Source: a virus
Lineage: Duplodnaviria; Heunggongvirae; Uroviricota; Caudoviricetes
Reading direction: 5' to 3' (one strand)
Length of the DNA: 64,000 bases
Virus record (IMG/VR): IMGVR_UViG_2565956726_000008
Below are positions 4,255 to 23,794 of the stretch, piece after piece; the first letter of the stretch is position 1, and each line of letters begins with the position of its first letter. Both the position numbers and the translations under genes were made by a program. The notes under the pieces are model-generated. The model did not search any database and was not told the DNA's origin. It was given only the letters and a program-made list of their open reading frames with translations.

Positions 4255-4269
4255 ATCCGGGCGTTTTTG
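4241..4269. terminator. bidirectional terminator between convergent genes
   Basis: aaaaaa-cccgg-tagat-ccggg-cgttttt: short hairpin flanked by an A-run and a T-run, lying between the + strand chaperone gene and the - strand cassette. Confidence 0.45.
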
Positions 4270-4279
4270 TTAAGTTCGC

Positions 4280-4600
4280 TTATGCTATTTTTTCGTAAAG
4301 CACATTCATCTGGGTGCGAATCACTGTTAATATATTGATTGCTGCGTTCTTATTAATGCGTTTATTCGCTACTATTTTTGTTTTCCCATCAATAACAACC
4401 AGATCTGCGTGCAATACATGGTTGAAGTTGACAATGTAATAATACTGTTTATCGCCAACATGTTGAACATATGCACCATTTAGATTTCCTTTATACCCAC
4501 AATCACGCTCTGCGACACCGAAGTCAAATTCGCGGTTCATCTTGCGATTATATGCTACTTGTTTATGTTCCCATTTTCTCATCCATTCATCGCGTTTCAT
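4280..4600 (-). CDS. hypothetical protein (moron cassette 1, distal gene)
   Basis: 106-aa minus-strand ORF 9 nt downstream of the lipoprotein gene, antisense to the tail operon; no family recognised. Confidence 0.45.
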   Translation of the reverse strand: MKRDEWMRKWEHKQVAYNRKMNREFDFGVAERDCGYKGNLNGAYVQHVGDKQYYYIVNFNHVLHADLVVIDGKTKIVANKRINKNAAINILTVIRTQMNVLYEKIA

Positions 4601-4609
4601 GTTTCACCC

Positions 4610-5269
4610 TTAATTCCAGTTGCAAGCGTTTTTCACTTTGTCGATGTGGTTATAAAGACCATCAATGTTAAACACTGCTTTCTCAATGTCGCCAGCTTCC
4701 GGCACTGCTTCAATGATAAATTGTTTTTCGTTAACCAGTTTTTTAATCATTGGGATGGCTTTTTTGCCGTCCCATAATCCAAGAGCTTTATAATTAGTTG
4801 ACCGCCACCACTCAGTAGCTACAGCTTTGTGATCGCCGATCCGGTAGTTAATATAAGTAGTGTCCCCAGCGTCAGTTACATGGTTTGACCATGCTACGAA
4901 CATTTTTGTTTTATTACCCTGGCAAGCGATTGTTAATACAGGTTTGTTTTCATCCCGTGCTTTCAGTGTAGGGAAAGCATCAAGACTTCCGCTGAAATGT
5001 TCTGCTTTCACGAAAAGGAACACGTTTTTTGTGTCCTGCATATCATCTTTTCTTTCGACCACAAGCCACTGTTTACCAGCTTTTTCTTTTGCTAACTGTG
5101 CCTCATATGCGGCTTGTTTTGCTTGTTGTTCTGCAAGCCATTTAGCATTTTTCTCTGCTAATGCTTGTTGTTCTTGAGTGGTCACTATAGGCGCTTTTTC
5201 ATTATCCTCATTGCAACCAACCAGACCCAATACCGCCGCAATCATTGCCACTTTTGCTAACCGTTTCAT
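4610..5269 (-). CDS. lipoprotein (moron cassette 1), function unknown
   Basis: 219-aa ORF; N-terminus MKRLAKVAMIAAVLGLVGC has a signal peptide and lipobox (LVGC); GGTGGG Shine-Dalgarno upstream. Confidence 0.6.
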   Translation of the reverse strand: MKRLAKVAMIAAVLGLVGCNEDNEKAPIVTTQEQQALAEKNAKWLAEQQAKQAAYEAQLAKEKAGKQWLVVERKDDMQDTKNVFLFVKAEHFSGSLDAFPTLKARDENKPVLTIACQGNKTKMFVAWSNHVTDAGDTTYINYRIGDHKAVATEWWRSTNYKALGLWDGKKAIPMIKKLVNEKQFIIEAVPEAGDIEKAVFNIDGLYNHIDKVKNACNWN

Positions 5270-5315
5270 AACCCACCACGCTAACTTGATTTACTGACCA
5301 TTCCCTTTGGCTTCT

Positions 5316-5357
5316 TTATACAAAATGGAGTCGTTGAAGTAAAGCCATTTTGTATAA
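5316..5357. promoter_or_regulatory. 13-bp perfect inverted repeat in divergent intergenic region
   Basis: ttatacaaaatgg (5316-5328) and ccattttgtataa (5345-5357) are exact reverse complements, between the divergent lipoprotein gene and tape measure gene; TATAAA -10-like element at 5353-5358. Confidence 0.35.
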
Positions 5358-5396
5358 AATAGATACACAGATCACATTTTTGCATGAGGTTAAATC

Positions 5397-7739
5397 ATGG
5401 ATACCAGTGTAGGTACAATTTATTACGAAGTTGATGCGAAAACTAGTCAACTTCTCGTTGCACAACGACAGGCAGACCAGGCCTTTGGGCGTATAGAGCG
5501 CGGCGCAAAACAGGCTGACCGCCAGGTAAACACCCTGAAAACATCCATCAAGGCACTGACCAGGGTTATCCATTTGCTAATTGCTGCGGAGGCCGTGCGT
5601 CAATTCATGGATATGGCGGAGCAAGCAAAAATGCTTCGCGTAAAAATCAAAATGCTTACGGGCGATGCGGAGTCCGCCGGACGGGTTTTTGATGGCCTGA
5701 AAGCAATATCAAAAGAAACAGGCCAAAGCATGAAGGATACCGGGGATCTGTGGCAAGGCTTAGCTATCTCACTGAAGAACACGTCCGCCACTGAAGGGCA
5801 ATTGCTTAACCTGGTAGGTACGATTCAGAAAATGGGGGCATTAGGCGGCGCGTCAGCGGAACAGATGTCTAACTCAATGCGTCAATTCCGTCAGTCTATC
5901 GACGGCGGTGTTCTTCGTGCCGAAGAATTTAACAGCCTGCTTGAAAATACGCCGACCATCGTACAAACAATGGCCCGCCATATGGGATTATCAATGGGCC
6001 AGTTCCGCGCCGAAATGCTGGACGGCAAGATCACGGCTGAAAGGATGGTTAACGCAATACAGGCGGCTACGCAGGAAACAAACGATAAGTTTGCTCAGTT
6101 GCCGCGCACATCCGGCATGGCTATCAATGAGCTTAAAGTAGAAATTATGGGCCTTGTTGAGCAGTTGGATGATCTTTTTGGCGTGTCAGATGGCGTTGTT
6201 TCAGCTATCGACTTGATCACGAAAGGCGTTAAAGGGCTTGGCGATGGCGCTAAATTCGCTAAAACCTGCTTCGACACACTCAAAACGGCTGGTAGCGAAT
6301 TTATCGACATGTTTGATGATGTGGCTGTTAAGGCTGGAGAGGTGGCAGAGAAGATCATCGCAATGGTGACGCCAATCAAGGCGCTAATGGATGGCTATAA
6401 ATGGATGAAGGAGGTAGTAGGAGAGCAAACCGACGAATATAACAGCAACTACGAGAAGAAATACGGGAAGACCGTTGGCAAGGTCATGCAACTACAGGAT
6501 GATCTGACCGCAGCAATCCAGGCTACAGAAGAAGCAAGGAAAAATGAACAGAATGCTGCCAATGACGGAGCGATTACCGGATTCGACAAGCCAGTAGACA
6601 AGCCGAAAAAACAGAAAAAAGAGAAGAAATCGGAAGCTGATCGGCTTGGTGACAAAGGTATAAGCGTTTCTGATCAGTACAACAAAGACGCCGCCGCCAT
6701 GCGCAAAGCGTTGGAGAACGGCAAGGCCATTGATGCTGCATTTGCCCAGGGTAAAATCACGCTCCTTGAGTACCGCGCCGCGCAAAAAGGGATCGGCAAG
6801 GAACTGAAAGAAGAATTAGCACAAATTCCGGTAGATGAATTGCGTGATAAATGGTCACAAATAGTAAGCCCGATGGATCAGCTAAAAGGCGAAGTTGACC
6901 CCATCCAGCAGGCGCAAAATGAATGGGCCATCCGTAAGCAAATGCTTATAGACCTGGGCGCTACTGAAGCGCAACAGAAACAGGAATTGTTAGCCTATGA
7001 GCAACAGATCCGCGATCTGAAATGGGAACAATGGCAGGCGCAAAGCGACACAAACGGCCTTATCGGTGATTGTGTTAATGGCCTTAAAGGCGGAATGAGT
7101 AATGCGCTTGTTGGCCTGTTAAACGGCACTCAATCATTGAGTGATGTTTTTGCTAACTTAGGAAGCAATATACTCGGCAATATCGGTAACAGACTCTCAG
7201 ACATAGCTGCAAACTGGATAGCAGATCAGATCATGATGGAGACACAAAGCAAGGCCACGCAAACAAGTACAACAGCAAGCGCGGTAGCAGCTCAGGGAAG
7301 CATTGCTGCGGCGGCGGCCCCAGCAGCGGCGGCAACTGCGGCGTCAACTGGCGGTAGCTGGGCGGCGGCTGGTTCGGCGGCGCTCACTGCGATCATGTCG
7401 CTGGCTACGTCAATTTTCGGCGGCGGTCGCTTTAATGGTGGTAGCGTCATTGGTGGTAATATGTACCGCGTAGGGGAACACAACAGGCCGGAGCTATTCC
7501 AGACATCTAACGGCAATCAATATATGATCCCTGGCGAGAACGGCAGAGTTATTCCGGGCCGTGATATTGGCGGCGGTGGCGGTATTAGTATGCCTGTCAG
7601 TATCAGCATTCAGACCACGAACGGATTCAGCGACGAAGACAGCCGCAGACTTGAATTAACAATGGAACGTGTAGCCATGAAAATGATAACAAGGGAATCT
7701 CAAAGACCAGGCGGAATGTTGCAACCTCGCCGCAAATAA
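5397..7739 (+). CDS. tail tape measure protein (prophage A)
   Basis: 780-aa ORF, long predicted coiled-coil N-terminal part, Ala/Gly-rich C-terminal segment (AAAAPAAAATAASTGGSWAAAGSAALTA), position upstream of M-L-K-I-J. Confidence 0.8.
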   Translation: MDTSVGTIYYEVDAKTSQLLVAQRQADQAFGRIERGAKQADRQVNTLKTSIKALTRVIHLLIAAEAVRQFMDMAEQAKMLRVKIKMLTGDAESAGRVFDGLKAISKETGQSMKDTGDLWQGLAISLKNTSATEGQLLNLVGTIQKMGALGGASAEQMSNSMRQFRQSIDGGVLRAEEFNSLLENTPTIVQTMARHMGLSMGQFRAEMLDGKITAERMVNAIQAATQETNDKFAQLPRTSGMAINELKVEIMGLVEQLDDLFGVSDGVVSAIDLITKGVKGLGDGAKFAKTCFDTLKTAGSEFIDMFDDVAVKAGEVAEKIIAMVTPIKALMDGYKWMKEVVGEQTDEYNSNYEKKYGKTVGKVMQLQDDLTAAIQATEEARKNEQNAANDGAITGFDKPVDKPKKQKKEKKSEADRLGDKGISVSDQYNKDAAAMRKALENGKAIDAAFAQGKITLLEYRAAQKGIGKELKEELAQIPVDELRDKWSQIVSPMDQLKGEVDPIQQAQNEWAIRKQMLIDLGATEAQQKQELLAYEQQIRDLKWEQWQAQSDTNGLIGDCVNGLKGGMSNALVGLLNGTQSLSDVFANLGSNILGNIGNRLSDIAANWIADQIMMETQSKATQTSTTASAVAAQGSIAAAAAPAAAATAASTGGSWAAAGSAALTAIMSLATSIFGGGRFNGGSVIGGNMYRVGEHNRPELFQTSNGNQYMIPGENGRVIPGRDIGGGGGISMPVSISIQTTNGFSDEDSRRLELTMERVAMKMITRESQRPGGMLQPRRK

Positions 7740-7745
7740 ACTAAA

Positions 7746-7775
7746 TCCCGGTGCAATGCCGGGGTTATTTTTCGT
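7746..7775 (+). terminator. rho-independent terminator after tape measure gene
   Basis: cccggtgcaatgccgggg hairpin followed by TTATTTTT; near-identical hairpin sequence to the terminator at 1198-1229. Confidence 0.55.
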
Positions 7776-7825
7776 ATTTATAAACGACCATTCCGCGCGA
7801 TATATCCCCTTTCGAATATCTCGAC

Positions 7826-8080
7826 TCACTTATGAGTGCCTTTCACGCCACATAACTTGTTATAGGCATGGTGCTCAACAATTAACCAAACCTTCAAATC
7901 TTCGCTAAACAGCCTCCAATCAAGATTGATATCCATTTTGTATCCGTAACCGTCGCGTAACTTTTTGGGGTAAACTTCTTTTCTCAGAAAGGCTTTAAGT
8001 AATTCCTTACCTTTCTTGATGATCCGGTCCTGTGCGTTTTTCTGTGCTTTCAGATTTCTGTCAATCGCTACCAGTTTCAT
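7826..8080 (-). CDS. hypothetical protein, possible RelE/YoeB-like toxin (moron cassette 2, distal gene)
   Basis: 84-aa minus-strand ORF; loose resemblance to YoeB/RelE-type toxins (QDRIIKKGKELLK; DWRLFSEDLKVWLIVEHHAY). Assignment is weak. Confidence 0.35.
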   Translation of the reverse strand: MKLVAIDRNLKAQKNAQDRIIKKGKELLKAFLRKEVYPKKLRDGYGYKMDINLDWRLFSEDLKVWLIVEHHAYNKLCGVKGTHK

Positions 8081-8097
8081 AACTCACCCCATCATCC

Positions 8098-8253
8098 TTA
8101 GTTAAGTGCCTTCAGGAAGAAGTCCCGGTATTCATCTTCTTTCGCATTCATCATGAATTGACCGTATTTGAATGCGTCGTCGAAACCCTTAACGATTGCT
8201 ATTTCCACTTGTTCGAATGCGTTATTTAGCATTACTACTACATAGCGTTTCAT
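8098..8253 (-). CDS. small hypothetical protein (moron cassette 2, proximal gene; candidate antitoxin)
   Basis: 51-aa ORF not in the provided track (below 60 aa); ATG at 8251-8253 preceded by GGAGG at correct spacing; stop 17 nt upstream of the 84-aa gene start. Confidence 0.4.
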   Translation of the reverse strand: MKRYVVVMLNNAFEQVEIAIVKGFDDAFKYGQFMMNAKEDEYRDFFLKALN

Positions 8254-8420
8254 TTTGGGCCTCCTTCGTTGGTACTACTTTCTTCTTGCTTTCTATATAC
8301 ATCTTGTTGCGTGCTATGTGAAGCCATTTTGTAAACTAGCTATAATCATTGTGACAATGATCTTATTTTTCGCGTAGAAGCGCGTAAAGATATATACAAA
8401 ATGTAACTTGTGGGGGTTTT

Positions 8421-8774
8421 ATGCCGGAAGTGTTCAGATGGACGCCGCAAAGAAGCTACAGCGTGACCAGGAAGCCAGACGTATCTGTTGTTAAGCTGGG
8501 CGATGGTTATGAGCAAAGACAGGTAAAAGGTATCAATCCATTGCTTGATAGCTACACCCTGGTGTTTAAAGGCAGTAGCGCCGGATGTGGTGATGGTGGA
8601 AACGTAGCAATCCAGGCGGAAGCATTCTTGAGGGCGCGCGGCGCGGTCGAGGCTTTTTACTGGTCGCCGTCAATGGATAACGTGCAAAGGCTTTTTGTCT
8701 GTCGGCAATGGAGCATGACTAAAGACGGGCCTTTGTACACGCTAAACGCAACGTTTGAGCAAGTTGTTGGCTAA
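8421..8774 (+). CDS. minor tail protein M (lambda gpM homolog, divergent)
   Basis: 117 aa; shares lambda M hallmarks (FRWTP..., KLGDGYEQR, C-terminal FEQVVG). Confidence 0.8.
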   Translation: MPEVFRWTPQRSYSVTRKPDVSVVKLGDGYEQRQVKGINPLLDSYTLVFKGSSAGCGDGGNVAIQAEAFLRARGAVEAFYWSPSMDNVQRLFVCRQWSMTKDGPLYTLNATFEQVVG

Positions 8775-8971
8775 TGGGGGTTGTTATGTACGGGACTTGT
8801 GTAGTTGACAAAACTTACGCTTTTACATTGTTTGACGACTATGAGATCAACGACCTTACTGTAAAAGCTGACAACGGCGATATATGGTATCTTCACGACG
8901 TTGGTGATGGGTACGTTGGGTGTAGATCCCGGGAAGGGAAGGAGGTTTTATTTTTGGTTGATGGCGTATAA
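8774..8971 (+). CDS. hypothetical protein translationally coupled to M
   Basis: 65-aa ORF starting in TAATG overlap with M stop; no lambda counterpart between M and L. Confidence 0.4.
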   Translation: MGVVMYGTCVVDKTYAFTLFDDYEINDLTVKADNGDIWYLHDVGDGYVGCRSREGKEVLFLVDGV

Positions 8972-8975
8972 ACAC

Positions 8976-9003
8976 GACCCCGCGCGAAGCGGGGTTATTT
9001 TTA
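8976..9003 (+). terminator. rho-independent terminator
   Basis: ccccgcgcgaagcgggg hairpin followed by TTATTTTTATT. Confidence 0.5.
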
Positions 9004-9127
9004 TTCTATTTCCATTAATGCTATATTTTCTGCTATCGTTTTCCAGTCCAGATCTACAGCATGAACGCCAAATACTATCAACCCCATTATTATTAGCGCC
9101 AAAACTTCTATTTTTATAATCAGTCAC

Positions 9128-9376
9128 CTATAAGTTATCACGCAGATAATTAACGCCCTTATCAGTGACGAATGAATGGTTAACCTGGTTTTCATCCGTC
9201 ATGATGATGAATAACTTTTCATGTAGGTATTTCGCTTTCGGGTACAGCGTTAAACAGACCTGGTACAGTATCCCGCGCTCAATCAGCAAATCAATAAATT
9301 CGTGTTCATGATAACCGATGAGGCGGGCGGCCTGTTTCAACGTGTACACATAATCACCGTGATTGCGCCGCCCCAT
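9128..9376 (-). CDS. hypothetical protein with HTH-like segment (moron cassette 3, gene 3)
   Basis: 82-aa minus-strand ORF; YTLKQAARLIGYHEHEFIDLLIERGIL resembles MerR/excisionase-type helix-turn-helix. Confidence 0.45.
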   Translation of the reverse strand: MGRRNHGDYVYTLKQAARLIGYHEHEFIDLLIERGILYQVCLTLYPKAKYLHEKLFIIMTDENQVNHSFVTDKGVNYLRDNL

Positions 9377-9385
9377 GTTGCCGCC

Positions 9386-9733
9386 TTATTTATCGAATGC
9401 TGAAAGGTTATCGATACAGAAATCTTTCGCCGCTTTTTCGTATTCGCGTTTTGCTTCTGGATCGTCAGCCGGGAAACCTTTTGCGTGTATTTCACCAGGG
9501 CAAGACTGGTCCATAGAATCTGCATAATAAGCAGTGAAGCTACCATTAATATCTTTCGGGTTCATATCTTCCACCTCATCAACTATCTGTACCGGATTAG
9601 CAGCATATTTCACTGGATGGCCTAAACTACATTCAAGAATCCTGCCTTCTTCCAGGGCTACTTCTTCGCTATCAAATAATCCGAAACACTCCTTGCTACC
9701 ACTTAACCACACATCAAGACTGTATTTTTTCAT
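9386..9733 (-). CDS. hypothetical protein (moron cassette 3, gene 2)
   Basis: 116 aa from internal ATG (MKKYSLDVWLSG...); the 149-aa listed ORF would overlap the upstream gene extensively. N-terminus appears paralogous to gene 1. Confidence 0.45.
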   Translation of the reverse strand: MKKYSLDVWLSGSKECFGLFDSEEVALEEGRILECSLGHPVKYAANPVQIVDEVEDMNPKDINGSFTAYYADSMDQSCPGEIHAKGFPADDPEAKREYEKAAKDFCIDNLSAFDK

Positions 9734-9902
9734 TTTTGTTAGCCTCATATTTGACAGGTTCGATCTGGTATCCCAAAAGGCGGTCATCCTCAGCAAGTAA
9801 AAGCGCGTCAACCAATGCTTCACCCTCGTCGTCATACAGGGCGATAACCTTTTCCCTACCGTCTGTCATGAATACCGTCAACTTCCATAGCTTTTCAGTC
9901 AT
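9714..9902 (-). CDS. hypothetical small protein (moron cassette 3, gene 1)
   Basis: 62 aa from internal ATG (MTEKLWKLTVFMTDGREKVIALYDDEGEALVDA...); overlaps gene 2 by 20 nt. Confidence 0.4.
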   Translation of the reverse strand: MTEKLWKLTVFMTDGREKVIALYDDEGEALVDALLLAEDDRLLGYQIEPVKYEANKNEKIQS

Positions 9903-10031
9903 AACGCACCTCCGCGCCATTTTGTTAACTATGCTTCCGTTTGAGTAAAATATACATATTGTAAAAACCGCGATCAATCCATTTTGGTATGATTTAGCGT
10001 GACGCAGATCACAGAATGACAAGGTGAGAAA

Positions 10032-10736
10032 ATGCGCAATATTCCGAGAGAAATGATTATTGATTCCGTCGATGCCGGAGTCGGCGCGGTAATTGACTTG
10101 TTTGAATTAGACCTCACGCCCCTGGGTGGCGAGGTTATCCGCTTCCATTCCGGCGTGAATGGCTATTACGGCCCGGTTATCTGGAAGGGGGTGGCTTACA
10201 ACAGCTACCCTATCGAGGCCACTGGCTTCGAAATGAAAAACGAGGGTGTCTATTCACGCCCGCAAATGGTTGTAGCCAACATTGGCGGCCTAATCACCGG
10301 GATGAATAACGATTTCAACGACCTGCGAGGAATGAAAGTTACACGCCGCCAGGTGGAAGTAAAATACCTGGACGCCATCAACTTCCCCAACGGCAACCCG
10401 GATGCAGATCCGTCTATCGAGGCGGTGTCTTTTTACGTCGTTGAGGCGATGAGCGAAGAAACAGCCGACCAGGTGCAATATGAGCTGTCAACGCCAATTG
10501 ATGCTGACAAGGCGGTTATCCCAGGGCGCACAATCCTTGCTGACGTTTGCCAATGGCAATATCGCGGCGACGGTTGCGGATACAGTGGCGGCCCTGTAGC
10601 TACTGATAAAGACGAATCGACCAGCGATCCAAAGCTGGATAAATGCAGCCACCGCCTGAGCGGTTGCCGTTTACGTTTCCCGCGCCCGAATCCGTTACCA
10701 ATTTCATGTTTCCCAGGATCGAGCAAGGTGGGTTGA
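10032..10736 (+). CDS. minor tail protein L (lambda gpL homolog, divergent)
   Basis: 234 aa; alignable with lambda L (e.g. WQYRGDGCGYSGGPVA vs lambda WTYRGDECGYSGPAVA). Confidence 0.85.
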   Translation: MRNIPREMIIDSVDAGVGAVIDLFELDLTPLGGEVIRFHSGVNGYYGPVIWKGVAYNSYPIEATGFEMKNEGVYSRPQMVVANIGGLITGMNNDFNDLRGMKVTRRQVEVKYLDAINFPNGNPDADPSIEAVSFYVVEAMSEETADQVQYELSTPIDADKAVIPGRTILADVCQWQYRGDGCGYSGGPVATDKDESTSDPKLDKCSHRLSGCRLRFPRPNPLPISCFPGSSKVG

Positions 10737-10738
10737 TT

Positions 10739-11470
10739 ATGGCACTTGAAGATAAAATGATTCGCTATGCAGCAGCCCACCCGCGCGAGGAAGTGTGCGG
10801 GCTGGTGATAGATAACGATTATTTTTACCCGTGCGCTAACGTGTCTGAAACGCCGCACAACAGCTTTAAAATCTCGCCTGACGATTATATCAAAGCTGAC
10901 GAATTGGGCGTTATAACAGCCGTTTTCCACTCTCACGTTGAAGATATTCCGGTATTGTCGGCACGGGATCGACAACAGCAGGTTATTTCCGGCCTGCCGT
11001 GGTTTTTATGTTCCGGTGGCAGGGTTAGAAAATTCCGCCCGGTAGCGCACCTGTTAGGCCGAAAATTTGAGCACGGGAAAACAGACTGCTACGCGCTTTT
11101 CCGCGACGCATATCACCTTTGTGGCGTGGATCTACCGGACTTCGAGCGCCTTGATGGCTGGTGGCTGCGTGGGGAAAACCTGTACATAAAAAACCTGCCA
11201 TTGAACGGGTTTTTCATGGTTGATGCGCAAAGCATTCAGCCTGGTGACGTGATTATTCGCCAGCCGTTCAAGGGTGCTGACCCATGTCACGCGATGATTT
11301 ACCTGGGCGATAACACTGTTTTGCATCATGACAATGCCGGACTGCTAAGCCGCCGCGAGCAAATGCGGCCCGCGTATGTTCGACAAACGCATTCAATATG
11401 GAGATCTGACAAATGCTCAAATTTAGATTTACGGGCAATCTTCGAAGATATTACGGCAAAGTGTGTTTAA
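10739..11470 (+). CDS. tail assembly protein K (lambda gpK homolog; NlpC/P60 and JAB/MPN-like)
   Basis: 243 aa from MALEDKMIRYAAAHP; conserved HSH and C...H motifs as in lambda K; start 3 nt after L stop. Confidence 0.8.
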   Translation: MALEDKMIRYAAAHPREEVCGLVIDNDYFYPCANVSETPHNSFKISPDDYIKADELGVITAVFHSHVEDIPVLSARDRQQQVISGLPWFLCSGGRVRKFRPVAHLLGRKFEHGKTDCYALFRDAYHLCGVDLPDFERLDGWWLRGENLYIKNLPLNGFFMVDAQSIQPGDVIIRQPFKGADPCHAMIYLGDNTVLHHDNAGLLSRREQMRPAYVRQTHSIWRSDKCSNLDLRAIFEDITAKCV

Positions 11471-11943
11471 ACGTTGATACGCCAGCACAAGGACTTAGCC
11501 TATTGACCGCGCAGAATCAGGAGTTCAAGAAGGCTTTTTTAAATACACCTTTGCGGTTACGGATTGCCGGGAAAGATTATAACGAAAAGACGGCCCCGGC
11601 AGCGGTTAATAGTAAATACCCTGACGGAACTACCGTCATTATTGCGCCAGTAGTTGAAGGCGGTATTGCTGGGATTGGTGTTGTAGGCTGGATCCTGATT
11701 GGTGTTTCGGTGGTTAGCGTTGCGTTCTCAATCTTTATGTCCCGCAACATGAAGATAAAAACATCGGCAGAAAGCGCACAAGATAACACCATAACGAACA
11801 ACACCTACACCAGCATTGAAAACAAGGTGGGCCAGGGTAGACCAGTGCCAATACTATTAGGTGAAATGAAAATAGGTTCAAACGTCGGATCGTTAGGCAT
11901 AGACACAAGCAACAATAGAGACGCCTTAGACGTTGTAAGTTAA
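11413..11943 (+). CDS. tail assembly protein I (lambda gpI homolog, divergent)
   Basis: 176 aa overlapping the 3' end of K as in lambda; C-terminus LLGEMKIGSNVGSLGIDTS resembles lambda I LYGEMRVGSRVVSQEIST. Confidence 0.7.
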   Translation: MLKFRFTGNLRRYYGKVCLNVDTPAQGLSLLTAQNQEFKKAFLNTPLRLRIAGKDYNEKTAPAAVNSKYPDGTTVIIAPVVEGGIAGIGVVGWILIGVSVVSVAFSIFMSRNMKIKTSAESAQDNTITNNTYTSIENKVGQGRPVPILLGEMKIGSNVGSLGIDTSNNRDALDVVS

Positions 11944-11956
11944 CAGGAGAAAAACC

Positions 11957-14900
11957 ATGAGTAGCGGCGGCGGCAAAGCCAAAACACCAACATTATTGAA
12001 CGATAACCTGTATCACAAACAGTTTTATCGTGTTTTAGATATTCTCAGCGAAGGGCCGATATACGGTCCGGTAAACCAGAAAGCGCCATTGAATGACGTG
12101 ATGCTTAATGACACTCCTGTTACTGACGCAAACGGGAATACATCAATTCCGGGGATTAGTATAGCCTGGCGCAACGGCACGGCTGACCAATCGCCGATTA
12201 ATGGTTTTAACGCCATTGAGTCAACCGTTATTGTCAACGCAAAGGTAACTCACGACACACCAATAATCAGGACTGTTTCAGATCCAAACGTTACCCGCGT
12301 CAGGTTGAATCTTGGTGTTGATGCTCTCGTTCAGTCAGATGAAAAGGGCAATCAATATAATACATCCGTCATGTTGATGGTTGATGTTAAACCGTCATCA
12401 TCTTCTACGTGGTCGCTGATTAAAGACATACACATTGGCCCTGGTAAACAAAGCGGTGAATACCTGGAAGCTCACATCATTAAAGCGCCGGATGAAAAAC
12501 CGTTTGATATTCGCGTTCGTCGCATAACACCAGACAGCAACGGCGATCTATTGCGGAATGATACGCGGTGGAGTAGTTACAGCGAAATAATAGATGATAA
12601 TCTGTCTTATCCTCATACCGCTGTAGCTGGCGCCGTAATTGACCATGATCAGTATACTGATACGCCTACCCGCACCTATCACCTTCGCGGCCTGATTGTT
12701 GATGTGCCTGACAACTACAACCCTGAAACGCGCACATATTCAGGTTTATGGCTTGGTGGATTTAAAAAGGCGTATACCAATAACCCTGCATGGCTTTTCC
12801 GGTATCTGGTTAAAAACGAGCGCTTTGGACTTGCTCGACATGCTGGTTACATTGATGTTGATGATGGCGCTTTGTACGTGCTTTCTCAATACTGCGATCA
12901 GTTGGTTGATGATGGCTATGGTGGCCTTGAACCTCGCATGACGCTTAACGCTTACATTACGGAGCAAATGAGCGCCCGCGACCTACTGGATAACATCGCA
13001 GGTATGTTCCGTGGTATCGCGTTATGGGACGGACAACGTCTTACCGTGATGATTGATGCGCCACAAGATCCAATCGCCACCATCACAAATGCAAACGTCG
13101 TTGATGGCGCGTTTACTCGTTCAAGTATCGCACGCGCAGAATGCTACAACGCCGTGATCGTATCCTGGACTGACCCTGAAAACGGCTGGGAGCAATCAAA
13201 AGAATATGTCGCAGATGATAAACTAATCGCCCGTGATGGTTATAACGAAACCACGTTGGAGGCGTTCGGTTGCACTTCACGCGGGCAAGCGCACCGCGCT
13301 GGTAAATGGCTGATCGAAACAGCGAAACGCGAGCCGTCAAAATTCACATTTAAAATGGCCCGTGACGCCATTCACTTTACGCCGGGGGATATAATCGAGA
13401 TCCTCGATAATAATCGCGCAGGCGCTCGTTTAGGCGGTCGCATCGTGGCGAACAATGGCAGAGCGATCACGGTCGACAAGGTTGATTCTGAATATATCGC
13501 GGCTGGCGACACCATCAGCTTACTTGATAGCGATGGTAAATTTAAAAAACACCAGATCATCGGAGTTAACGGGAACATTATCACCCTTGCAGCCGCCCCG
13601 GCGTGGATTCGTAACGGCACTGTTTTTGCTGTATCAACCAACGCAGCAAAACCCGTTTTATGTCGAATCACCAGTGTAGCAGAAACAGAAAATAACAGCG
13701 TATACACCATCGAGGCCGCACAGCATGATCCACATAAGCAGGCCGTAGTCGATAATGGCGCAATCTTCGAGATCAATAACGACACGCTTAATCACTTCCG
13801 CGTGCCGAACATTGAAAATCTGAAGGTGTTAAACGTTGGATCTGAAACGGTTCAATGTCGCGCAACATGGGAAACACAGACGACAACGCGTCGCCTGACC
13901 TTTGAGATTCGCGTGTATAACGCCGAAGGCGCTGTAGTTAAAAGCTACGAAACCACGAATTACAGTTATGATTTTTATGGCATTGATGCTGGCAACTACT
14001 CATTAGGCATTCGTGGCAGAAATGACACGGGCATGAAGGGTGCGGAAAGCATTGTCGATCTGGTTATTGGCGCACCAGCGGCCCCAGTTGGCGTTAATTG
14101 GGTTCCCGGTGTATTCCAGGCTACAGTTTACCCGATCAGCAGAACAACGCTCACCACTGATACCAGTTACGAGTTTTATTACTCAGGTGAAACGCAGATC
14201 ACTGATCCGGCATCAATAACCACTAAAGCACAATATACCGGGCGTGGTCATCAGTGGACGTTTGGCGGCATGAATACAGGTCACACATATTACGTTTATG
14301 TGCGCGCGCGTAACGCTTTTGGTGTGTCTGACTTTGTGGAAGCGTCAGGTAAGCCAACAGAAAACTTTGATGAAATTACCGATTACGTCACCAAAGACGT
14401 AATGAATTCCAAACAATTTAAAGAAATGGTTGGTGACATTAAAGATCTAGGCGACCGCACTGATCTTATCGAAAGCGCTACGAATGACCTTAAAACTGCT
14501 ACTGACAACCTCAAAACTGCAACTGATAATCTGACCAACATAACTGACGATTTAAGGACTGAAACTGACAACCTAACCATAGAAACAGGATCAATAAAAG
14601 CTGATACTGATACGCTCAAAAAAGAAACGGAAGATCTTTATAAAAAAGTTAAGGAAAACGCCGATGATATTGGACAGCATGAGTCGAGAATCGACTCGCT
14701 GGAGGTGTCTAGCGAAAAAGTTGGCAGCGAACTGGCGCAAGCAAAAGCAAGTCTGCAAAACGCCTCACTTGCTCTTATTAATAACTCGCTTGCACAGACT
14801 AACACTCGCGTAACTCTTACCGCTCAGTACAAGAAAGGCAGGACAGAGACGAAAGCGGAAATTGACCGCATTGACAACGTTATCGCTGAAGAGAAAAAAG

Positions 14901-16819
14901 CGACAGCGGAATCACTGGAAACCATCACGGCAGAAATGAATGTGATGGACACAAACCTTAAAGGTCAGATCTCTAATGTGCAACGCGCAGTAGCTGACGA
15001 GGCCAGCGCCCGCGCTGAAGCTATTAACGGTGTAAATGCCTCAATAAGCAATCTTGACAAGAAAACTGACGCCAGCGTAAACCGTCTTGATCAGGCAATT
15101 GCAGACGAAACAAGTGCGCGTACTCAGGCTATCAGCGACGTGAACGCAAGTATCTCAACACTTGACAAGAAAACTGACGCCAGCGTTAAGCGCCTCGATA
15201 ATGCAATATCAGATGAAACGCAGGCAAGAAGCGACGCAATAACAGTGGTTAAAGCTGATTTAACAACGCTTGAAAATAACACAAATGCCAGTGTTAGCCG
15301 TCTTGATCAAGCTATCGCTGATGAATCAAGCGCACGTGCTCAGGCGATATCAGGTATCAGCGCGACGCTTGGCGGCGTTAAAAGTGAGGTTGATAAAAAC
15401 AGCGACGAGATAGATCAGGCGAAAGCAAGTCTGCAAAACGCATCTCTGGCGCTTATTAATAACTCAATGGCGCAAAGCAAGATGAGCACTGTTATTGAGG
15501 CGAAATACAGGAAAGGACAAACAAAAACAAAAGCGGAAATAGCAAGGGTAGACACAGCAATCGCAGATGAGGCGAGCGCACGCGCAGAAGCTATTAGCGG
15601 GGTTAATGCGTCAATTTCCACGCTCGATAGCAAGGTGACAAGCAACGTAACCAGGATGGATAAAGCGATCGCAGATGAGAAGAATGCACGCACTGACGCA
15701 ATCAGCAGCCTTAACTCATCGCTTACCAGTACGATTAATTCGAAAGTATCCGAAGTGTCAACTGCACTTTCTACGCATGAAACATCAAGCGCGGAAAAAT
15801 TTGGCCAGATCTCGGCATCTTTCGACGATGTAAACTCAAGCATCACGGAATGGTCACAGGCTATGGCAACGGCAGACGAGGCATTGTCAACCAGAATCGA
15901 CCAGTTGAAAGTAACTATTAACGGAAACACAACGGCGATAGAAACGACATCAAAAGCACTGACTGACTTCAAAGGTAACGTTGATGCGTCATATTCAATT
16001 AAGATTGCCACTGATAAAAACGGTATGAAATACGCTACAGGAATGTCGCTCGGCCTTACTGGTAGCGGGACTAACGTTCAATCGCAGTGTATTTTCCTCG
16101 TTGACCGTTTCGTGCTTATGACTGCGGCAGGTGGCTCCTATCAGACCCCGTTCTATGTTACTAACGGTGCTTGCTACATCCGTGATGCGTGGATCAGAGA
16201 CGCATCAATCACTACCGCGAAGATTGCGCAGCAAATTCAGTCAACCAACTATAAAGCTGGTTCGGCTGGCTGGATGCTAAATAAAAACGGCAATGCGGAG
16301 TTCAACAACGTCACTGTACGCGGTACGGTGTACGCAACATCTGGTAAATTCACTGGTGAGATTCAGGCCACAAGCGGGAAGTTTAAAGGTACAGTAGAGG
16401 CAAAGTCATTTGTCGGTGACGTTGCTAACATGGGGGTTGGTCCAGATCGAGTGCTTGGGCATAACGGAAGTTATAGCGCAACCATCACATATAAAGACAG
16501 CACGGATAATGCATTGACGAAATCAGTTATGCTTATGGCGACTATTTCATTAATGTCTGGTGAATATAGATCCACTTATAACGTAACGTTTAGTTGCGGA
16601 GATAAAAACAAAACAATTTCATATTACGTGCCTTATGGTGGATGCACATTAACAGTGCAATGCGCTTTTTCTGGTTTAAAAGCATCAGATATTATCGGGA
16701 AAATATATTGTCCTCAAACATCATCATCTGAAGGATACGCATATTGTACCGCGTTGTATTCTCCAACAATGATAGTAGCAAGAGGCACCGGATCATTTAG
16801 AACATCAACGACAGCATAA
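11957..16819 (+). CDS. host specificity / central tail fibre protein J (lambda gpJ homolog with extended repeat-rich fibre region)
   Basis: 1620 aa; N-terminal 1100 aa alignable with lambda J; followed by about 450 aa of coiled-coil-type repeats and a distinct C-terminal domain not resembling the lambda J LamB-binding end. Confidence 0.85.
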   Translation: MSSGGGKAKTPTLLNDNLYHKQFYRVLDILSEGPIYGPVNQKAPLNDVMLNDTPVTDANGNTSIPGISIAWRNGTADQSPINGFNAIESTVIVNAKVTHDTPIIRTVSDPNVTRVRLNLGVDALVQSDEKGNQYNTSVMLMVDVKPSSSSTWSLIKDIHIGPGKQSGEYLEAHIIKAPDEKPFDIRVRRITPDSNGDLLRNDTRWSSYSEIIDDNLSYPHTAVAGAVIDHDQYTDTPTRTYHLRGLIVDVPDNYNPETRTYSGLWLGGFKKAYTNNPAWLFRYLVKNERFGLARHAGYIDVDDGALYVLSQYCDQLVDDGYGGLEPRMTLNAYITEQMSARDLLDNIAGMFRGIALWDGQRLTVMIDAPQDPIATITNANVVDGAFTRSSIARAECYNAVIVSWTDPENGWEQSKEYVADDKLIARDGYNETTLEAFGCTSRGQAHRAGKWLIETAKREPSKFTFKMARDAIHFTPGDIIEILDNNRAGARLGGRIVANNGRAITVDKVDSEYIAAGDTISLLDSDGKFKKHQIIGVNGNIITLAAAPAWIRNGTVFAVSTNAAKPVLCRITSVAETENNSVYTIEAAQHDPHKQAVVDNGAIFEINNDTLNHFRVPNIENLKVLNVGSETVQCRATWETQTTTRRLTFEIRVYNAEGAVVKSYETTNYSYDFYGIDAGNYSLGIRGRNDTGMKGAESIVDLVIGAPAAPVGVNWVPGVFQATVYPISRTTLTTDTSYEFYYSGETQITDPASITTKAQYTGRGHQWTFGGMNTGHTYYVYVRARNAFGVSDFVEASGKPTENFDEITDYVTKDVMNSKQFKEMVGDIKDLGDRTDLIESATNDLKTATDNLKTATDNLTNITDDLRTETDNLTIETGSIKADTDTLKKETEDLYKKVKENADDIGQHESRIDSLEVSSEKVGSELAQAKASLQNASLALINNSLAQTNTRVTLTAQYKKGRTETKAEIDRIDNVIAEEKKATAESLETITAEMNVMDTNLKGQISNVQRAVADEASARAEAINGVNASISNLDKKTDASVNRLDQAIADETSARTQAISDVNASISTLDKKTDASVKRLDNAISDETQARSDAITVVKADLTTLENNTNASVSRLDQAIADESSARAQAISGISATLGGVKSEVDKNSDEIDQAKASLQNASLALINNSMAQSKMSTVIEAKYRKGQTKTKAEIARVDTAIADEASARAEAISGVNASISTLDSKVTSNVTRMDKAIADEKNARTDAISSLNSSLTSTINSKVSEVSTALSTHETSSAEKFGQISASFDDVNSSITEWSQAMATADEALSTRIDQLKVTINGNTTAIETTSKALTDFKGNVDASYSIKIATDKNGMKYATGMSLGLTGSGTNVQSQCIFLVDRFVLMTAAGGSYQTPFYVTNGACYIRDAWIRDASITTAKIAQQIQSTNYKAGSAGWMLNKNGNAEFNNVTVRGTVYATSGKFTGEIQATSGKFKGTVEAKSFVGDVANMGVGPDRVLGHNGSYSATITYKDSTDNALTKSVMLMATISLMSGEYRSTYNVTFSCGDKNKTISYYVPYGGCTLTVQCAFSGLKASDIIGKIYCPQTSSSEGYAYCTALYSPTMIVARGTGSFRTSTTA
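14455..14640 (+). repeat. tandem 21-bp (7-codon) repeats inside J
   Basis: Encodes ATNDLKTATDNLKTATDNLTNITDDLRTETDNLTIETGSIKADTDTLKKETEDL; repeated gctactgacaacctcaaaact-type units. Confidence 0.5.
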
Positions 16820-16822
16820 AAA

Positions 16823-16850
16823 ACGGGGCATAAGCCCCGTTTTTTTTTAT
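16823..16850. terminator. bidirectional terminator after J
   Basis: aaaaaacggggcataagccccgttttttttt: hairpin flanked by A-run and T-run between convergent genes. Confidence 0.6.
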
Positions 16851-16859
16851 GCATTGTTT

Positions 16860-17105
16860 TTATTTTTTACACCCATCATTTACACCAGAAAAATGGATAG
16901 GTAAATTACATTCACTGTCAATAATTTTACCTTGTAGTTGTTTTTCTTTCCATGAGTCAGTATTGAAATAACTCGAACGTTGGTTATCAAGGCCAGTATC
17001 ACCATATTGAGCAGTGCCAGCATCACTCTTATCTGTCGAATTTACAGAAGCAAAAGCACCAAAAGACAGAGCTGATAAGATGCAAGCAACAATTAGTTTT
17101 TTCAT
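16860..17105 (-). CDS. small secreted cysteine-containing protein (moron, lom/bor position)
   Basis: 81 aa from MKKLIVACILSALSFGAFA (signal peptide); three Cys in the last 20 residues; minus strand between J and the tail fibre gene. Confidence 0.5.
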   Translation of the reverse strand: MKKLIVACILSALSFGAFASVNSTDKSDAGTAQYGDTGLDNQRSSYFNTDSWKEKQLQGKIIDSECNLPIHFSGVNDGCKK

Positions 17106-17302
17106 TGTATTCACCTTACTGTTTGTTTTACTGTCATTTGTTGTTCGTGATGATCCACCCATCCGATGAGCAAATCACCGCAGAAGCTATCATTTCGTAT
17201 GTTGATATAGATCAAAAAATACACTATGTATAAGCCCAAAGTGTAACACAGATCACAAAATGGTAGAATTGTTTAGTTAATTAACAAAACGGAGTTATTG
17301 CG

Positions 17303-19099
17303 ATGATTTACACAACAGGCACTATAGCTGTTAGCGGAAACACAGTTACCGGGGCAGGGACTGAATTCAACGCCGCATTATCTCTGATCAGAGTGGGTTG
17401 CACTCTTATTGCCATTAGCGATCCGGTGCAGATTTTTTCAATCACAAAGGTAAAAAGCGCAACAAGTTTGTCGGTAACTCCTGCGGCAAGTCCGGCTATT
17501 CCGGCTGGAACTAAATTTAGCATCCTGCTTTCAGATTCGATCTCTGTGGATGGTCTTGCTCAGGATGTTGCCGAAACACTGCGTTACTACCAGGGCAAAG
17601 AATCAGAAATAGCTGACGCTGTGGAGTTTTTCAGCGACAACAAAGATGTGATTTCAGCATCAAAATTAGCATTAGCATCAGCTACCACTGCAACCAATGC
17701 GGCAACAACAGCGACAAGCGCCGCCGATTCAGCCAAGACATACAGAGACGAAGCCCACGAATACGCCAATCAGACCGCACAGCCTTACGCGTATGTTTTG
17801 CAACCGCTGCCGGACGTATGGATACCGTTTAACGATTCTCTCGATATGATCACGGGCTACGGCCCTGGTACTAAAAAAGTAACCATTAATGGGGAAGAAA
17901 AAACAATATCATCAGATAAAGTTGTTTCTTTCTCACGCGCAAGCACTGCTACTTACATTAACAAATCAGGTGTTTTAACTGTGGCTGGTATTAATGAGCC
18001 ACGTTTTGAACGCGAAGGATTACTGATTGAGGGGACGCGCACAAACCTGTTAATAAACAGTACAGACCCTTCGAAGTGGAATAAGTCAACTTCACTGGAC
18101 GTTACAGAAACAGGCACAGATAGTTTTGGGTTTAATTATGGCCGGTTTGTCGTACAGGATTCGATTGTTGGTACAAGTAAAGCGCATACCATTATCGGAC
18201 TGTATTCGAGTGCCGGAGGGGTTGATACTTCAGGGGACGAAAAGCATGTAACTATATCCTGTCGGGTAAAAAGTGAAGTTGATAATATCGCCGTTCGTAT
18301 TTTATTTGAACATTATGATGGGGAGGTAAGGACATCAATAGGAGCAGCAAACCTGAACCTTACCACCCGCATAATTAGCAAGACAGGTCAGACAAGCCGT
18401 GTTACAGCAAGGTCTGTTAAGGATGATGCAACTGGCTGGATATTTTTTGAGGCTACATTAAAAGCAGATACAACAGAAAATACGGTTGGTGGTTTCGTCC
18501 AGTATTCTCCGGATACAGGTCAGATGGTGGCATCAGGGGATTGTCTCGATGTAACCACTCCACAGATTGAGGCTGGTGCAGGCGCATCATCTTTTATTGT
18601 TACGGGGTCGGCACCAGCAACGCGGGCAAGCGATATGGTGACAGTCCCAATCAAGAATAACCTTTATAATCTTCCTTTTACGGTTCTTTGTGAGGTACAT
18701 AAGAACTGGTATAAAACGCCAAATGCAGCGCCGCGTGTTTTTGATACCGGCGGTCATCAAACCGGAGCGGCGATCGTAATGGGGTTTGGTTCATCAGGTG
18801 GGTACGACGGTTTTCCGTATTGTGATATAGGTGGTTCAAACCGACGAATAAATGAAAATGCCGGGCTGGAAAAAATACTTATTGGTATGCGGGTAAAGTC
18901 CGAACGGTCCACATGTGTAGTCAGTAACGGTAAGTTAAGCAGCGAAACAAAAACAACCTGGACTTATATTCAAAGCTCCGCAACTATTCGTATCGGTGGT
19001 CAGACAACGACAGGACAACGTCATTTATTTGGTCATGTTAGAAATTTTCGAGTATGGCATAAGGCATTAACTGATGCGCAATTAAGCGAAATTGTTTAA
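17303..19099 (+). CDS. tail fibre protein with LamG-like (jelly-roll) C-terminal domain, putative
   Basis: 598 aa; Ala/Thr-rich shaft segment (ASATTATNAATTATSAADSAKT); C-terminal NFRVWHKALTDAQLSEI resembles LamG-type domains in phage fibre proteins. Confidence 0.55.
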   Translation: MIYTTGTIAVSGNTVTGAGTEFNAALSLIRVGCTLIAISDPVQIFSITKVKSATSLSVTPAASPAIPAGTKFSILLSDSISVDGLAQDVAETLRYYQGKESEIADAVEFFSDNKDVISASKLALASATTATNAATTATSAADSAKTYRDEAHEYANQTAQPYAYVLQPLPDVWIPFNDSLDMITGYGPGTKKVTINGEEKTISSDKVVSFSRASTATYINKSGVLTVAGINEPRFEREGLLIEGTRTNLLINSTDPSKWNKSTSLDVTETGTDSFGFNYGRFVVQDSIVGTSKAHTIIGLYSSAGGVDTSGDEKHVTISCRVKSEVDNIAVRILFEHYDGEVRTSIGAANLNLTTRIISKTGQTSRVTARSVKDDATGWIFFEATLKADTTENTVGGFVQYSPDTGQMVASGDCLDVTTPQIEAGAGASSFIVTGSAPATRASDMVTVPIKNNLYNLPFTVLCEVHKNWYKTPNAAPRVFDTGGHQTGAAIVMGFGSSGGYDGFPYCDIGGSNRRINENAGLEKILIGMRVKSERSTCVVSNGKLSSETKTTWTYIQSSATIRIGGQTTTGQRHLFGHVRNFRVWHKALTDAQLSEIV

Positions 19100-19109
19100 G
19101 GTGGTTAAC

Positions 19110-19376
19110 ATGAAAGACGTTAGCTTGCAATTTACTGACAAACAGCAATACAACGACATTGTGATTAATAGCGGCTGGCTGGATGCCAATTGGTCAACCG
19201 TGTTTATTGATGATATCGGTTTTGTCCTTGTATTCGACGATCCAGAAAGCGAGACACCTGTACTTATTGGGAAAAAAGGTTATTACGTCAACGTGCGTAT
19301 AACTGGTGACGATGTTGATATTTCTCAGCTTGAGCCTTTCATCGTTCCAGATCCAGGCGTCCGCGCATGGGCTTAA
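19110..19376 (+). CDS. hypothetical protein downstream of tail fibre (possible fibre assembly/accessory)
   Basis: 88 aa from ATG at 19110 with AAGGTGG RBS, starting 11 nt after the fibre gene stop. Confidence 0.4.
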   Translation: MKDVSLQFTDKQQYNDIVINSGWLDANWSTVFIDDIGFVLVFDDPESETPVLIGKKGYYVNVRITGDDVDISQLEPFIVPDPGVRAWA

Positions 19377-19418
19377 TGATGCGGCAGTGATAGCATGGTG
19401 ATGTTGAAAGCATCGCCG

Positions 19419-19450
19419 AGAAACGAGGCTAACGCCTCGTTTCTTTTTGT
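19419..19450 (+). terminator. rho-independent terminator at end of prophage A late operon
   Basis: gaaacgaggctaacgcctcgtttc hairpin followed by TTTTTGT. Confidence 0.6.
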
Positions 19451-19823
19451 GTACCAAATAGTGACCAAATATCAAAAACTAAAATCAAAAACAACATAAC
19501 ATTATGTTTTATAAATGATTATTCGTTACACTAATCATTCCAGACAGGACTGGTGAGTAAGTCCAGGGTATTGAAGTTGTGCGTAATCATTGAGATCCCG
19601 TTATTTTTATCAATTTTTGTTGCTATCCGATCGCAAAAAAGCCACGTCATATGATCAGATAATTCTGATAATGATAGACGCTATTTAACACTTCACACGG
19701 TTTGTATATGGAAAAGCATTTTGCTTTTTGTATTCAATTTAGACAGAATTTTATTAATCATTTCAGGGTAATGGGGTGATGAGATGTTGCGTAACAGGGC
19801 CAGAAGGCTAGACTACAAAATAA

Positions 19824-22807: not shown

Positions 22808-23743
22808 TTATTTCACTTCAACCACATTCAGTCGTAACTCATCCAACTGATTTTCATCTTCTTCAGGCTGCCAACCCGCCGGTTGTAGAGGGAGCTCTTC
22901 GCGATCAAACGCCAGATCACCCCCGTTAACCACTTCAGAACCGTGGGTAATGCCTTTGAAATCGAACAGGTTGGTATCGCACAGATGCGACGGCACCACA
23001 TTCTGCATCGCGCTGAACATCGTCTCGATACGCCCTGGATAACGTTTATCCCAGTCACGCAACATGTCAGCAATCACCTGACGTTGCAGGTTAGGCTGTG
23101 AACCGCACAGATTGCACGGAATAATCGGGAATGCTTTTGCATCGGCAAAGCGCTGAATATCTTTCTCGCGGCAGTAGGCCAGCGGACGAATCACAATATG
23201 TTTGCCATCATCGCTCATCAGTTTCGGAGGCATACCTTTCATCTTGCCGCCGTAGAACATATTTAAGAACAACGTTTGCAGGATATCGTCACGATGGTGA
23301 CCCAGCGCGATCTTCGTCGCTCCCAGTTCCGTTGCGGTACGGTAAAGAATTCCGCGACGAAGACGAGAACACAGTGAGCAAGTGGTTTTGCCCTCCGGAA
23401 TCTTCTCTTTCACGATACCGTAAGTGTTCTCTTCCACAATCTTGTACTCAACGCCCAGCTTTTCAAGATACTCGGGCAGAACGTGTTCCGGGAAGCCCGG
23501 TTGTTTTTGATCGAGGTTGACAGCCACCAGCGAAAAATTGATTGGCGCGCTTTGCTGCAAATTGCGCAGAATTTCCAGCATGGTATAGCTGTCTTTACCC
23601 CCGGAGAGGCAAACCATGATGCGATCGCCTTCTTCAATCATATTGAAGTCAGCAATGGCTTCGCCCACGTTACGACGCAGACGTTTTTGTAATTTGTTCA
23701 GGTTGTATTGTTCTTTCTTTGTAATTTGTTGATTTTCTTGCAT
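22808..23743 (-). CDS. ttcA: tRNA 2-thiocytidine biosynthesis protein TtcA
   Basis: 311 aa; PP-loop SGGKDS motif and CxxC pairs; matches recollection of E. coli TtcA (YdaO). Confidence 0.93.
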
Positions 23744-23794
23744 TATTTCAGTTCTCTGGTACTAAATGGGGCAAATTGGGGGCAAACTTTGCAA

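Follow-up and report, generated by a model that had tools for sequence, protein, structure and literature searches.

An expanded and probably alpha-helical shaft built of 36-residue units in the central tail fibre protein J of an mEpimmI-type prophage

The DNA analysed here, referred to as the window, is a 64,000-nucleotide (nt) viral stretch (IMG/VR record IMGVR_UViG_2565956726_000008) whose left part belongs to a prophage, prophage A, and includes gene J, which encodes the tip attachment or central tail fibre protein. J of prophage A has 1620 amino acids (aa) and lambda J has 1132, giving an excess of 488 aa, in agreement with the original prediction, made from the letters alone, of a protein about 490 aa longer than that of lambda. 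The extra region carries in-frame repeats of several sizes, which point to a modular fibre shaft whose length changes by whole units. The gene and its parts, all on the + strand, are as follows.

11957–16819, +: gene J, tip attachment / central tail fibre protein, 1620 aa (open reading frame (ORF) list and translation)
11957–14389, +: N-terminal hub plus fibronectin type III (FNIII) and immunoglobulin (Ig) part, aa 1–811, homologous to lambda J 1 to about 800; the last Pfam domain ends at aa 811
14456–14644, +: heptad array, nine 7-aa units of the xTDNLxT type, in frame, aa 834–896
14738–14878, +: header A, aa 928–974, 47 aa, QAKASLQNASLALINNSLAQTNTRVTLTAQYKKGRTETKAEIDRIDN
14879–14986, +: degenerate 36-aa unit, aa 975–1010, in array register
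14987–15415, +: array A, four 36-aa (108-nt) units starting at aa 1011, 1047, 1083 and 1119
15416–15556, +: header B, aa 1154–1200, a copy of header A 678 nt downstream of it, predicted helix
15557–15772, +: array B, two 36-aa units starting at aa 1201 and 1237
15773–15901, +: distal non-repetitive helical segment (predicted), aa 1273 to about 1315, conserved among relatives, with many invariant columns
15902–16423, +: beta-meander / beta-prism part, containing Phage_Tail_Tip, homologous to the central straight fibre of lambda J
16424–16816, +: putative receptor-binding domain, aa 1490–1620, beta-rich by prediction

The first half of J contains four Pfam families, FNIII-A_GpJ (aa 88–214), Phage-tail_3 (335–492), Ig_J (609–707) and Ig_J_second (709–811), all scoring far above their cut-offs. 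Phage_Tail_Tip (PF09327, DUF1983) lies at aa 1327–1464 (E = 2.8e-40), and PHROG 31, 'central tail fiber J', matches the protein with E = 0. Between these parts, at aa 812–1326, no Pfam family was found even at E = 0.1, and the PHROGs recovered there were generic tail-fibre families only. The three ORFs upstream of J, at 10032–10736, 10643–11470 and 11413–11943, are annotated in relatives as minor tail protein L, a C40 peptidase and a tail assembly protein, which gives the order L–K–I–J of a siphovirus tail module. From its N-terminal domains, its Phage_Tail_Tip end and this gene order, we assign J as a lambda-type tip attachment / central fibre protein.

A BLASTP comparison aligned aa 1–850 of J with lambda J 1–857 (38% identity over 866 aa) and aa 1324–1489 with lambda 841–997 (23% identity, E = 1e-9). 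Because the lambda alignment stops at about 857 and restarts at about 841, the excess amounts to a single insert of about 470–490 aa, and it falls within the position of the short alpha-helical shaft in the published domain scheme of lambda gpJ (PMC11101478). Nearly all the excess length lies between the end of Ig_J_second at aa 811 and Phage_Tail_Tip.

The repeats of the insert begin with nine heptads, in order RTDLIES, ATNDLKT, ATDNLKT, ATDNLTN, ITDDLRT, ETDNLTI, ETGSIKA, DTDTLKK and ETEDLYK, and Tandem Repeats Finder reported a period of 21 at 14477–14526. Tandem 7-codon repeats had been predicted at 14455–14640, and these coordinates proved accurate. Further downstream, QAKASLQNASLALINNS starts at nt 14738 and again at 15416, 678 nt apart, and the DNA at the two starts is 83% identical over 59 nt. 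The '680-bp duplicated block' of the original prediction is correct in that both copies start with QAKASLQNASLALINNS; the region resolves, however, into two 47-aa headers followed by unequal numbers of units and not into a simple duplication. The unit, 36 aa or 108 nt long with the consensus AIADExSARxxAIxxVNASIxxLDxKTDASVxRLDx, sets the strongest period of the region and was not named in the original prediction. Array A was delimited from DNA repeats spaced 108 nt and from hidden Markov model (HMM) matches exactly 36 aa apart; its last unit, at aa 1119, diverges in the second half, with LGG at aa 1138–1140. The degenerate unit at aa 975–1010 is present only in block A and aligns by BLASTP with the first canonical unit of block B. 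Compared as wholes, blocks A and B share 49% identity over 96 aa in BLASTP, with additional off-register matches from unit to unit. The repeat zone, predicted to span 14455–15700, starts where it was placed and extends at its far end to about 15772.

BLOSUM62 autocorrelation over aa 820–1330 peaked at lags 7, 36 and 226, where z reached 9.8, 13.3 and 10.0 respectively, with further peaks at lags 72 and 108 and at lags 190 and 154, which equal 226 minus one or two units. In 200 composition-preserving shuffles the largest z at any lag was 4.1, so that internal repetition beyond compositional bias is upheld. The antisense ORF at 15415–16011 (−, 198 aa), which lies wholly within the repeat region of J, has no Pfam match and is probably spurious, an artefact of periodic Ala/Ser-rich coding sequence.

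To follow the modules outside the window, J was taken from 17 relatives, giving a survey of 18 J proteins from annotated genomes and phages, and modules were counted with HMMs derived from the units and headers of the window. The length survey was based on this set because protein searches gave mainly partial entries: a database search with the repeat region returned 13 matches only, mostly partial, word candidates being swamped by low complexity, and a search with a non-repetitive stretch returned mainly partial C-terminal fragments. The 18 proteins are 1358–1914 aa long and contain 2–14 units and one or two headers each. Their length tracks unit number (r = 0.95, slope about 40 aa per unit, n = 18), and successive units in an array are exactly 36 aa apart, save for two 35-aa steps in strain 190. 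The heptad array of mEp021 J has two more heptads than that of the window, and an HMM search of lambda J found no 36-aa unit and no header.

The cleanest variation was found at a single site, 15557, where 108-nt units are added relative to the window: one in E. coli MS 21-1, two in GN04592 and three in LP-26-E1-261, each with at most two mismatches to the window in the rest of the 4.86-kb J gene. The 4971-nt J gene of MS 21-1 occurs in four further genomes at 100% match; GN05505 also has one extra unit, yet 296 differences separate it from the window upstream of the junction. The first 42 nt of the extra unit are identical to those of the next unit (15557–15598 in the window), and the extra copies in LP-26-E1-261 are perfect 108-nt tandems, which together bear the mark of unequal recombination or slippage in the recent past. 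The proposal that the repeats permit length variation by recombination is thus borne out by near-identical alleles with 0 (the window), 1, 2 and 3 extra units at one site. The same C-terminal 135 aa are found on J proteins of 1527, 1620, 1656, 1692 and 1728 aa.

Several properties indicate that the repeated region is helical. Across the 531 residues of aa 812–1342 Pro is absent, while Ala, Ser, Thr and Asp abound. The strongest hydrophobic moment has a period of 3.52 residues in the heptad array and of 3.60 residues in the 36-mer array, the latter corresponding to ten hydrophobic core positions per 36 residues, and the periodicity power exceeds that of all shuffles for the 36-mer array and for the whole shaft. 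AlphaFold2 was run on monomers of aa 1154–1620 and 1190–1500, with the heptads and block A (aa 812–1153) outside the models. The first run (11 sequences) gave one helix at aa 1155–1315 with a predicted local distance difference test score (pLDDT) of about 90, header B falling at 77–91, and the second (32 sequences) a helix at aa 1191–1311 with pLDDT 97–98; long antiparallel strands follow the helix from aa 1316.

Comparison with solved fibres is consistent with this picture. By sequence, the shaft and beta part match T1 gp33 (9l9p, E = 2e-30), the F2-pyocin fibre (25vf, E = 4e-27) and a 'J-like tail tip protein gp24' (23gd), and array B aligns to the shafts of the F2-pyocin fibre and T1 gp33. 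For the F2 pyocin, the solved structure of the equivalent region is a three-stranded coiled coil (PMC13455828); in T1 gp33 this region was too flexible to resolve (PMC11945409). A Foldseek search with the model of aa 1154–1620 returned as best PDB entries the lambda central fibre (8xck, 8xcj) and A8 gpJ (9wca), all with E of about 2e-6; these matches lend weak support, as they superpose poorly (template modelling (TM) score of about 0.2, root-mean-square deviation of about 25 Å) and the matched stretch is unlocated.

Taken together, these data suggest, with a probability that we put at roughly 0.85, that the extra ~490 aa of J are an expanded, modular alpha-helical shaft whose length is changed by whole units. 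The earlier idea that the repeats mark a fibre shaft holds on the lambda shaft position, the absence of Pro, the period of 3.52–3.60 and the predicted helix. By analogy with other J-type central fibres, the shaft is most likely a three-stranded coiled coil. It would sit between the FNIII/Ig tip domains and the beta-prism and receptor-binding end, and would consist of the heptad run followed by two blocks, each made of a 47-aa header and 36-aa units. Whole units, each of 108 nt and in frame, would be gained or lost by unequal recombination or replication slippage between neighbouring units, so that the flanking domains stay undisturbed. Related prophages therefore carry different shaft lengths with the same receptor-binding domain. 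If a helical residue contributes the textbook rise of about 0.15 nm, the fibre should, by calculation, grow by about 5.3 nm with each 36-aa unit. Such length may serve to reach through O-antigen or capsule, or may set the amount of shaft that is remodelled after receptor binding.

Five points weigh against this reading. First, the units of the window allele are, as their sequences indicate, old: they share 44–69% DNA identity and 31–75% protein identity among themselves, units 1011 and 1047 have 27 identical residues of which 15 are encoded by different codons, and no exact repeat is longer than 26 nt, the next longest being 20 nt. Such diverged units make the window allele a poorer recombination substrate than the alleles of relatives. 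Second, the window's form with no extra unit (the 1620-aa J) was found in none of 5,426 complete E. coli genomes, near-identical genes all having one to three more units; either this allele arose by a rare deletion, or one unit has been collapsed in the source assembly. Third, the part of the shaft outside the models (aa 812–1153) may contain a kink or fold-back, for example at the LGG of aa 1138–1140. Fourth, we infer the trimeric packing from homologues, our own predictions being of monomers. Finally, we likewise infer how long the fibre really is and whether its length has adaptive value.

A further reading accepts a helical shaft but makes it metastable, so that receptor binding would turn the coiled coil, at least in the distal part at about aa 1200–1315, into a triangular beta-prism. 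A 2026 preprint describes such a change in the F7 pyocin, where a 163-residue coiled coil of the central fibre becomes a beta-prism on cell contact; the switch drives the tape-measure protein's ejection, and the pattern SxSxxMxxLxS marks each strand (PMC12874032). Of 24 siphophage central fibres, the same authors predict 21 to switch, the lambdoid mEp390 and HK639 among them, a precedent that favours this reading, and they exclude lambda and T5 from the extensive switch, which argues against it (PMC12874032). In J of prophage A, the energy released would open the tail tip and eject the tape-measure protein as in the F7 pyocin, and unit number would set the stored energy and the degree of shortening; the 36-aa units in general would perhaps convert too, with the adjacent beta strands as a seed.

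Several observations agree with fold switching. Window aa 1206–1446 align with aa 946–1185 of the F2-pyocin fibre (E = 4e-27); this homology spans block B and the distal helix, however, and not the heptads or block A. The pattern SxSxxMxxLxS, in either orientation, occurs 26 times in aa 812–1345, compared to 6.8 ± 2.6 (maximum 15) in 1000 shuffles, an enrichment that is inflated by the looseness of the motif and the non-independence of the repeat units. A 36-aa unit typically contains the pattern in both orientations, at positions 8–18 (forward) and 21–31 or 29–39 (reverse). Exposed helix positions are rich in Ala, Ser and Thr, and lambda itself converts a short piece of its shaft, residues 841–861, to beta strands on binding LamB (PMC11101478). 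Against this, both AlphaFold2 runs gave helix only, at very high confidence. As monomer runs on shallow alignments they are uninformative on switching, and the preprint likewise obtains helices with shallow alignments (PMC12874032). We therefore hold the switch to be possible for the distal shaft, but at clearly less than even odds.

Extended to the repeats, this reading would have the shaft switch fold in interchangeable quanta, the 36-residue units, each of them about 5 nm of helix able to become a beta hairpin layer of the prism; we consider this a speculative and rather improbable proposal. If it were true, unit gain and loss in E. coli prophages would tune fibre reach, energy and shortening on receptor binding, and the 0-, 1-, 2- and 3-unit alleles with an identical receptor-binding domain would be a natural experiment for the F7 mechanism in a true phage.

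Copy-number differences might, on the other hand, have no function, and reflect neutral slippage, or in part sequencing and assembly artefacts, in a recombination-prone segment of low complexity. Assemblies do break here, since most homologues are 'partial' at contig ends, and no complete genome matches the window allele exactly. The differences are nevertheless exact multiples of 108 nt and occur in complete genomes, mostly of the long-read era, from unrelated strains and countries. In addition, the protein sequence of the unit is strongly conserved while its codons diverge (the 15 of 27 residues noted above), which points to purifying selection on the unit sequence, and distant phages, Klebsiella phage KMI8 among them, have retained the same 36-aa unit. 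We find this explanation unlikely. Nearly all database homologues of the shaft and distal J are 'partial' C-terminal fragments at contig ends, which suggests that the 108-nt repeats are a regular breakpoint of short-read assemblies. PF28217, a family absent from the Pfam version used, is assigned to some of these partial homologues in newer Pfam annotations.

The headers or shaft kinks could also serve as docking places for the side fibres encoded downstream (17303–19099), the number of blocks or units setting where and how many attach. In F-type pyocins the side fibres bind the shaft of the central fibre: in the F2 pyocin, the alpha-helical shaft has a Gly-induced kink to which three side-fibre trimers are attached (PMC13455828), and the F7 preprint depicts the interface between side fibre and central fibre (PMC12874032, Fig. 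2). In J the LGG at aa 1138–1140 lies just ahead of header B, header copies number one or two across relatives, and J is followed by a fibre-like gene that is exchanged for other fibre genes in relatives. The header is, however, predicted as plain helix, and among the closest relatives the 36-aa units vary in number while the headers do not. Docking of this kind seems to us quite unlikely. Of the remaining candidates, a single simple 680-bp duplication is ruled out by the headers with their variable unit arrays, and a beta-helical fibre in the repeat zone, proposed in the original prediction as an alternative to a coiled coil, is unsupported and ruled out by the periodicity, the absence of Pro and the AlphaFold2 helix, which covers the modelled aa 1155–1315 with pLDDT up to 98 and agrees with the coiled coil.

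Modular shafts of this type were compared with known systems. The closest are the mEpimmI phages' J proteins, which differ in size and have a C-terminal region with 'repeats of different length (positions 950-1,475)', a stretch that is conserved and an end that is less so; mass spectrometry has found mEp021 J in virions (PMC11893012). Like J of the window, they combine heptads, one or two headers and 36-aa units with a stretch that is conserved and an end that varies, and they differ from it in having C-termini that are 25–33% identical to that of the window (mEp010, mEp013 and mEp044) or unrelated to it by BLAST (mEp021). The mEpimmI paper does not define the 36-aa unit, the 3.6 period or the 0/1/2/3-unit allelic series (PMC11893012). 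In a literature search for a 36-residue repeat described in J proteins, nothing relevant was found beyond the general remark in that paper.

Lambda gpJ (8IYK, 8XCK, 8XCJ) shares with the window J the hub, FNIII/Ig domains, alpha-helical shaft, beta-prism straight fibre and receptor-binding domain; its shaft, however, is only a few tens of residues long, without 36-aa units or headers, and the last 131 aa of the window J have no sequence similarity to it. F-type pyocin fibres (F2: 25VF, PMC13455828; F7: PMC12874032) resemble the window J in their long alpha-helical shaft before a beta-prism, and the window shaft is Ala/Ser-rich and contains matches to the loose SxSxxMxxLxS pattern of the F-type pyocins. 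In the pyocin shaft about 163 residues switch, and 36-aa tandems are not described for it; the window shaft is about 500 residues long. Pyocin fibres are without a receptor-binding domain of their own (PMC13455828), unlike the window J with its putative one, and fold switching, shown for F7, is hypothetical for the window J.

In T1 gp33 (9L9P, PMC11945409), residues 859–1148 align with a header-like segment and AIA[DT]ExxAR... units of the window (E = 2e-30). The T1 units appear to be about 33 aa long, as read by eye from the alignment, compared to 36 aa in the window, and residues 821–1172 were experimentally unresolved (PMC11945409). The 2206-aa tail fibre of Klebsiella phage KMI8 (Drexlerviridae) contains at least 17 units with a dominant lag of 36, as in the window. 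Both T1 and KMI8 are virulent T1-like phages whose genomes are otherwise unrelated to the window prophage. A tblastn search with four units matched 140 phage records, mostly of Klebsiella and Escherichia siphophages. The records and KMI8 together show that the unit is not confined to the mEpimmI group.

At the C-terminal end, the original prediction had the whole of about 16000–16819 differ from lambda J. The part at 16000–16423 turned out to be homologous, Phage_Tail_Tip (nt 15935–16348) being common to lambda J, and the difference is confined to the last ~131 aa (16424–16816). These residues, aa 1490–1620, are predicted by AlphaFold2 to form strands (pLDDT of about 70–89) and have no BLAST similarity to the C-termini of lambda or mEp021. 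They are 25–33% identical to those of mEp010, mEp013 and mEp044, which depend on LamB, while mEp021 depends on OmpA (PMC11893012), and they are identical in five E. coli prophages. Given the low TM score of the Foldseek matches and the unlocated matched stretch, a lambda-like fold of these 131 aa is not demonstrated. The domain is of a type distinct from those of mEp010/013/044 and of mEp021, with a putative receptor-binding role.

The genes around J also vary among relatives. The ORF at 17303–19099 (+, 598 aa) is annotated in relatives as a 'phage head spike fiber domain-containing protein', and its only Pfam match is a weak Laminin_G_3 at the C-terminus. Other relatives have a pyocin-knob S74 peptidase fibre or a tail fiber domain protein in this slot, and the ORF looks like a swappable side-fibre cassette. 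Right after J lies a small ORF at 16860–17162 (−) with no Pfam match, which corresponds to an 81-aa hypothetical protein (WP_000734009.1) in relatives and to a lipoprotein in MagusPhagus. Its position fits a superinfection-exclusion lipoprotein (Lpp), and the mEpimmI paper places Lpp inside the structural cluster (PMC11893012). A related prophage of E. coli UMNK88 (7535–7774 of L008) has a J C-terminus of the mEp021 type with a cor exclusion-lipoprotein gene downstream, unlike the window, which again points to the exchange of cassettes at the J-distal end. Upstream, mEp021 has a putative HNH endonuclease gene (1437–2003 of L003) inserted between I and J; in the window (11943–11957) and in the E. 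coli prophages examined, the I–J gap is a mere 13 nt.

Window 1–19538 shows 84–86% DNA identity to mEp021, mEp010, mEp013, mEp044, mEp515, mEp554 and MagusPhagus, with matches covering 49–60% of the 25-kb query, the window holding the structural half of the prophage only. On this similarity prophage A is an mEpimmI-type (mEp021-like) prophage and not a lambdoid one. The similarity to the mEp phages stops at about 19538, and E. coli chromosomal genes follow from 19539. At 22973–24992 the window has a Rac-type integrase/ttcA junction with 97% identity to phage Rac-SA53, so that a second prophage begins about 3.5 kb downstream.

The repeats in J do not reveal a new kind of system. That mEpimmI J proteins have repeats was already known in general, and what is added here is the definition of the unit, the 3.6 period and a clean copy-number series. 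The repeats explain why the J genes of this group are frequently truncated at contig ends in draft assemblies, and why J length is a poor guide to relatedness. Site 15557 offers unusually clean in-frame copy-number variation in near-identical genes with an identical receptor-binding domain. Its alleles with zero to three extra units could be used to ask whether the length of the central fibre affects adsorption through O-antigen or capsule, and whether the long J shafts of siphophages are fold-switching energy stores, as proposed for F-type pyocins.

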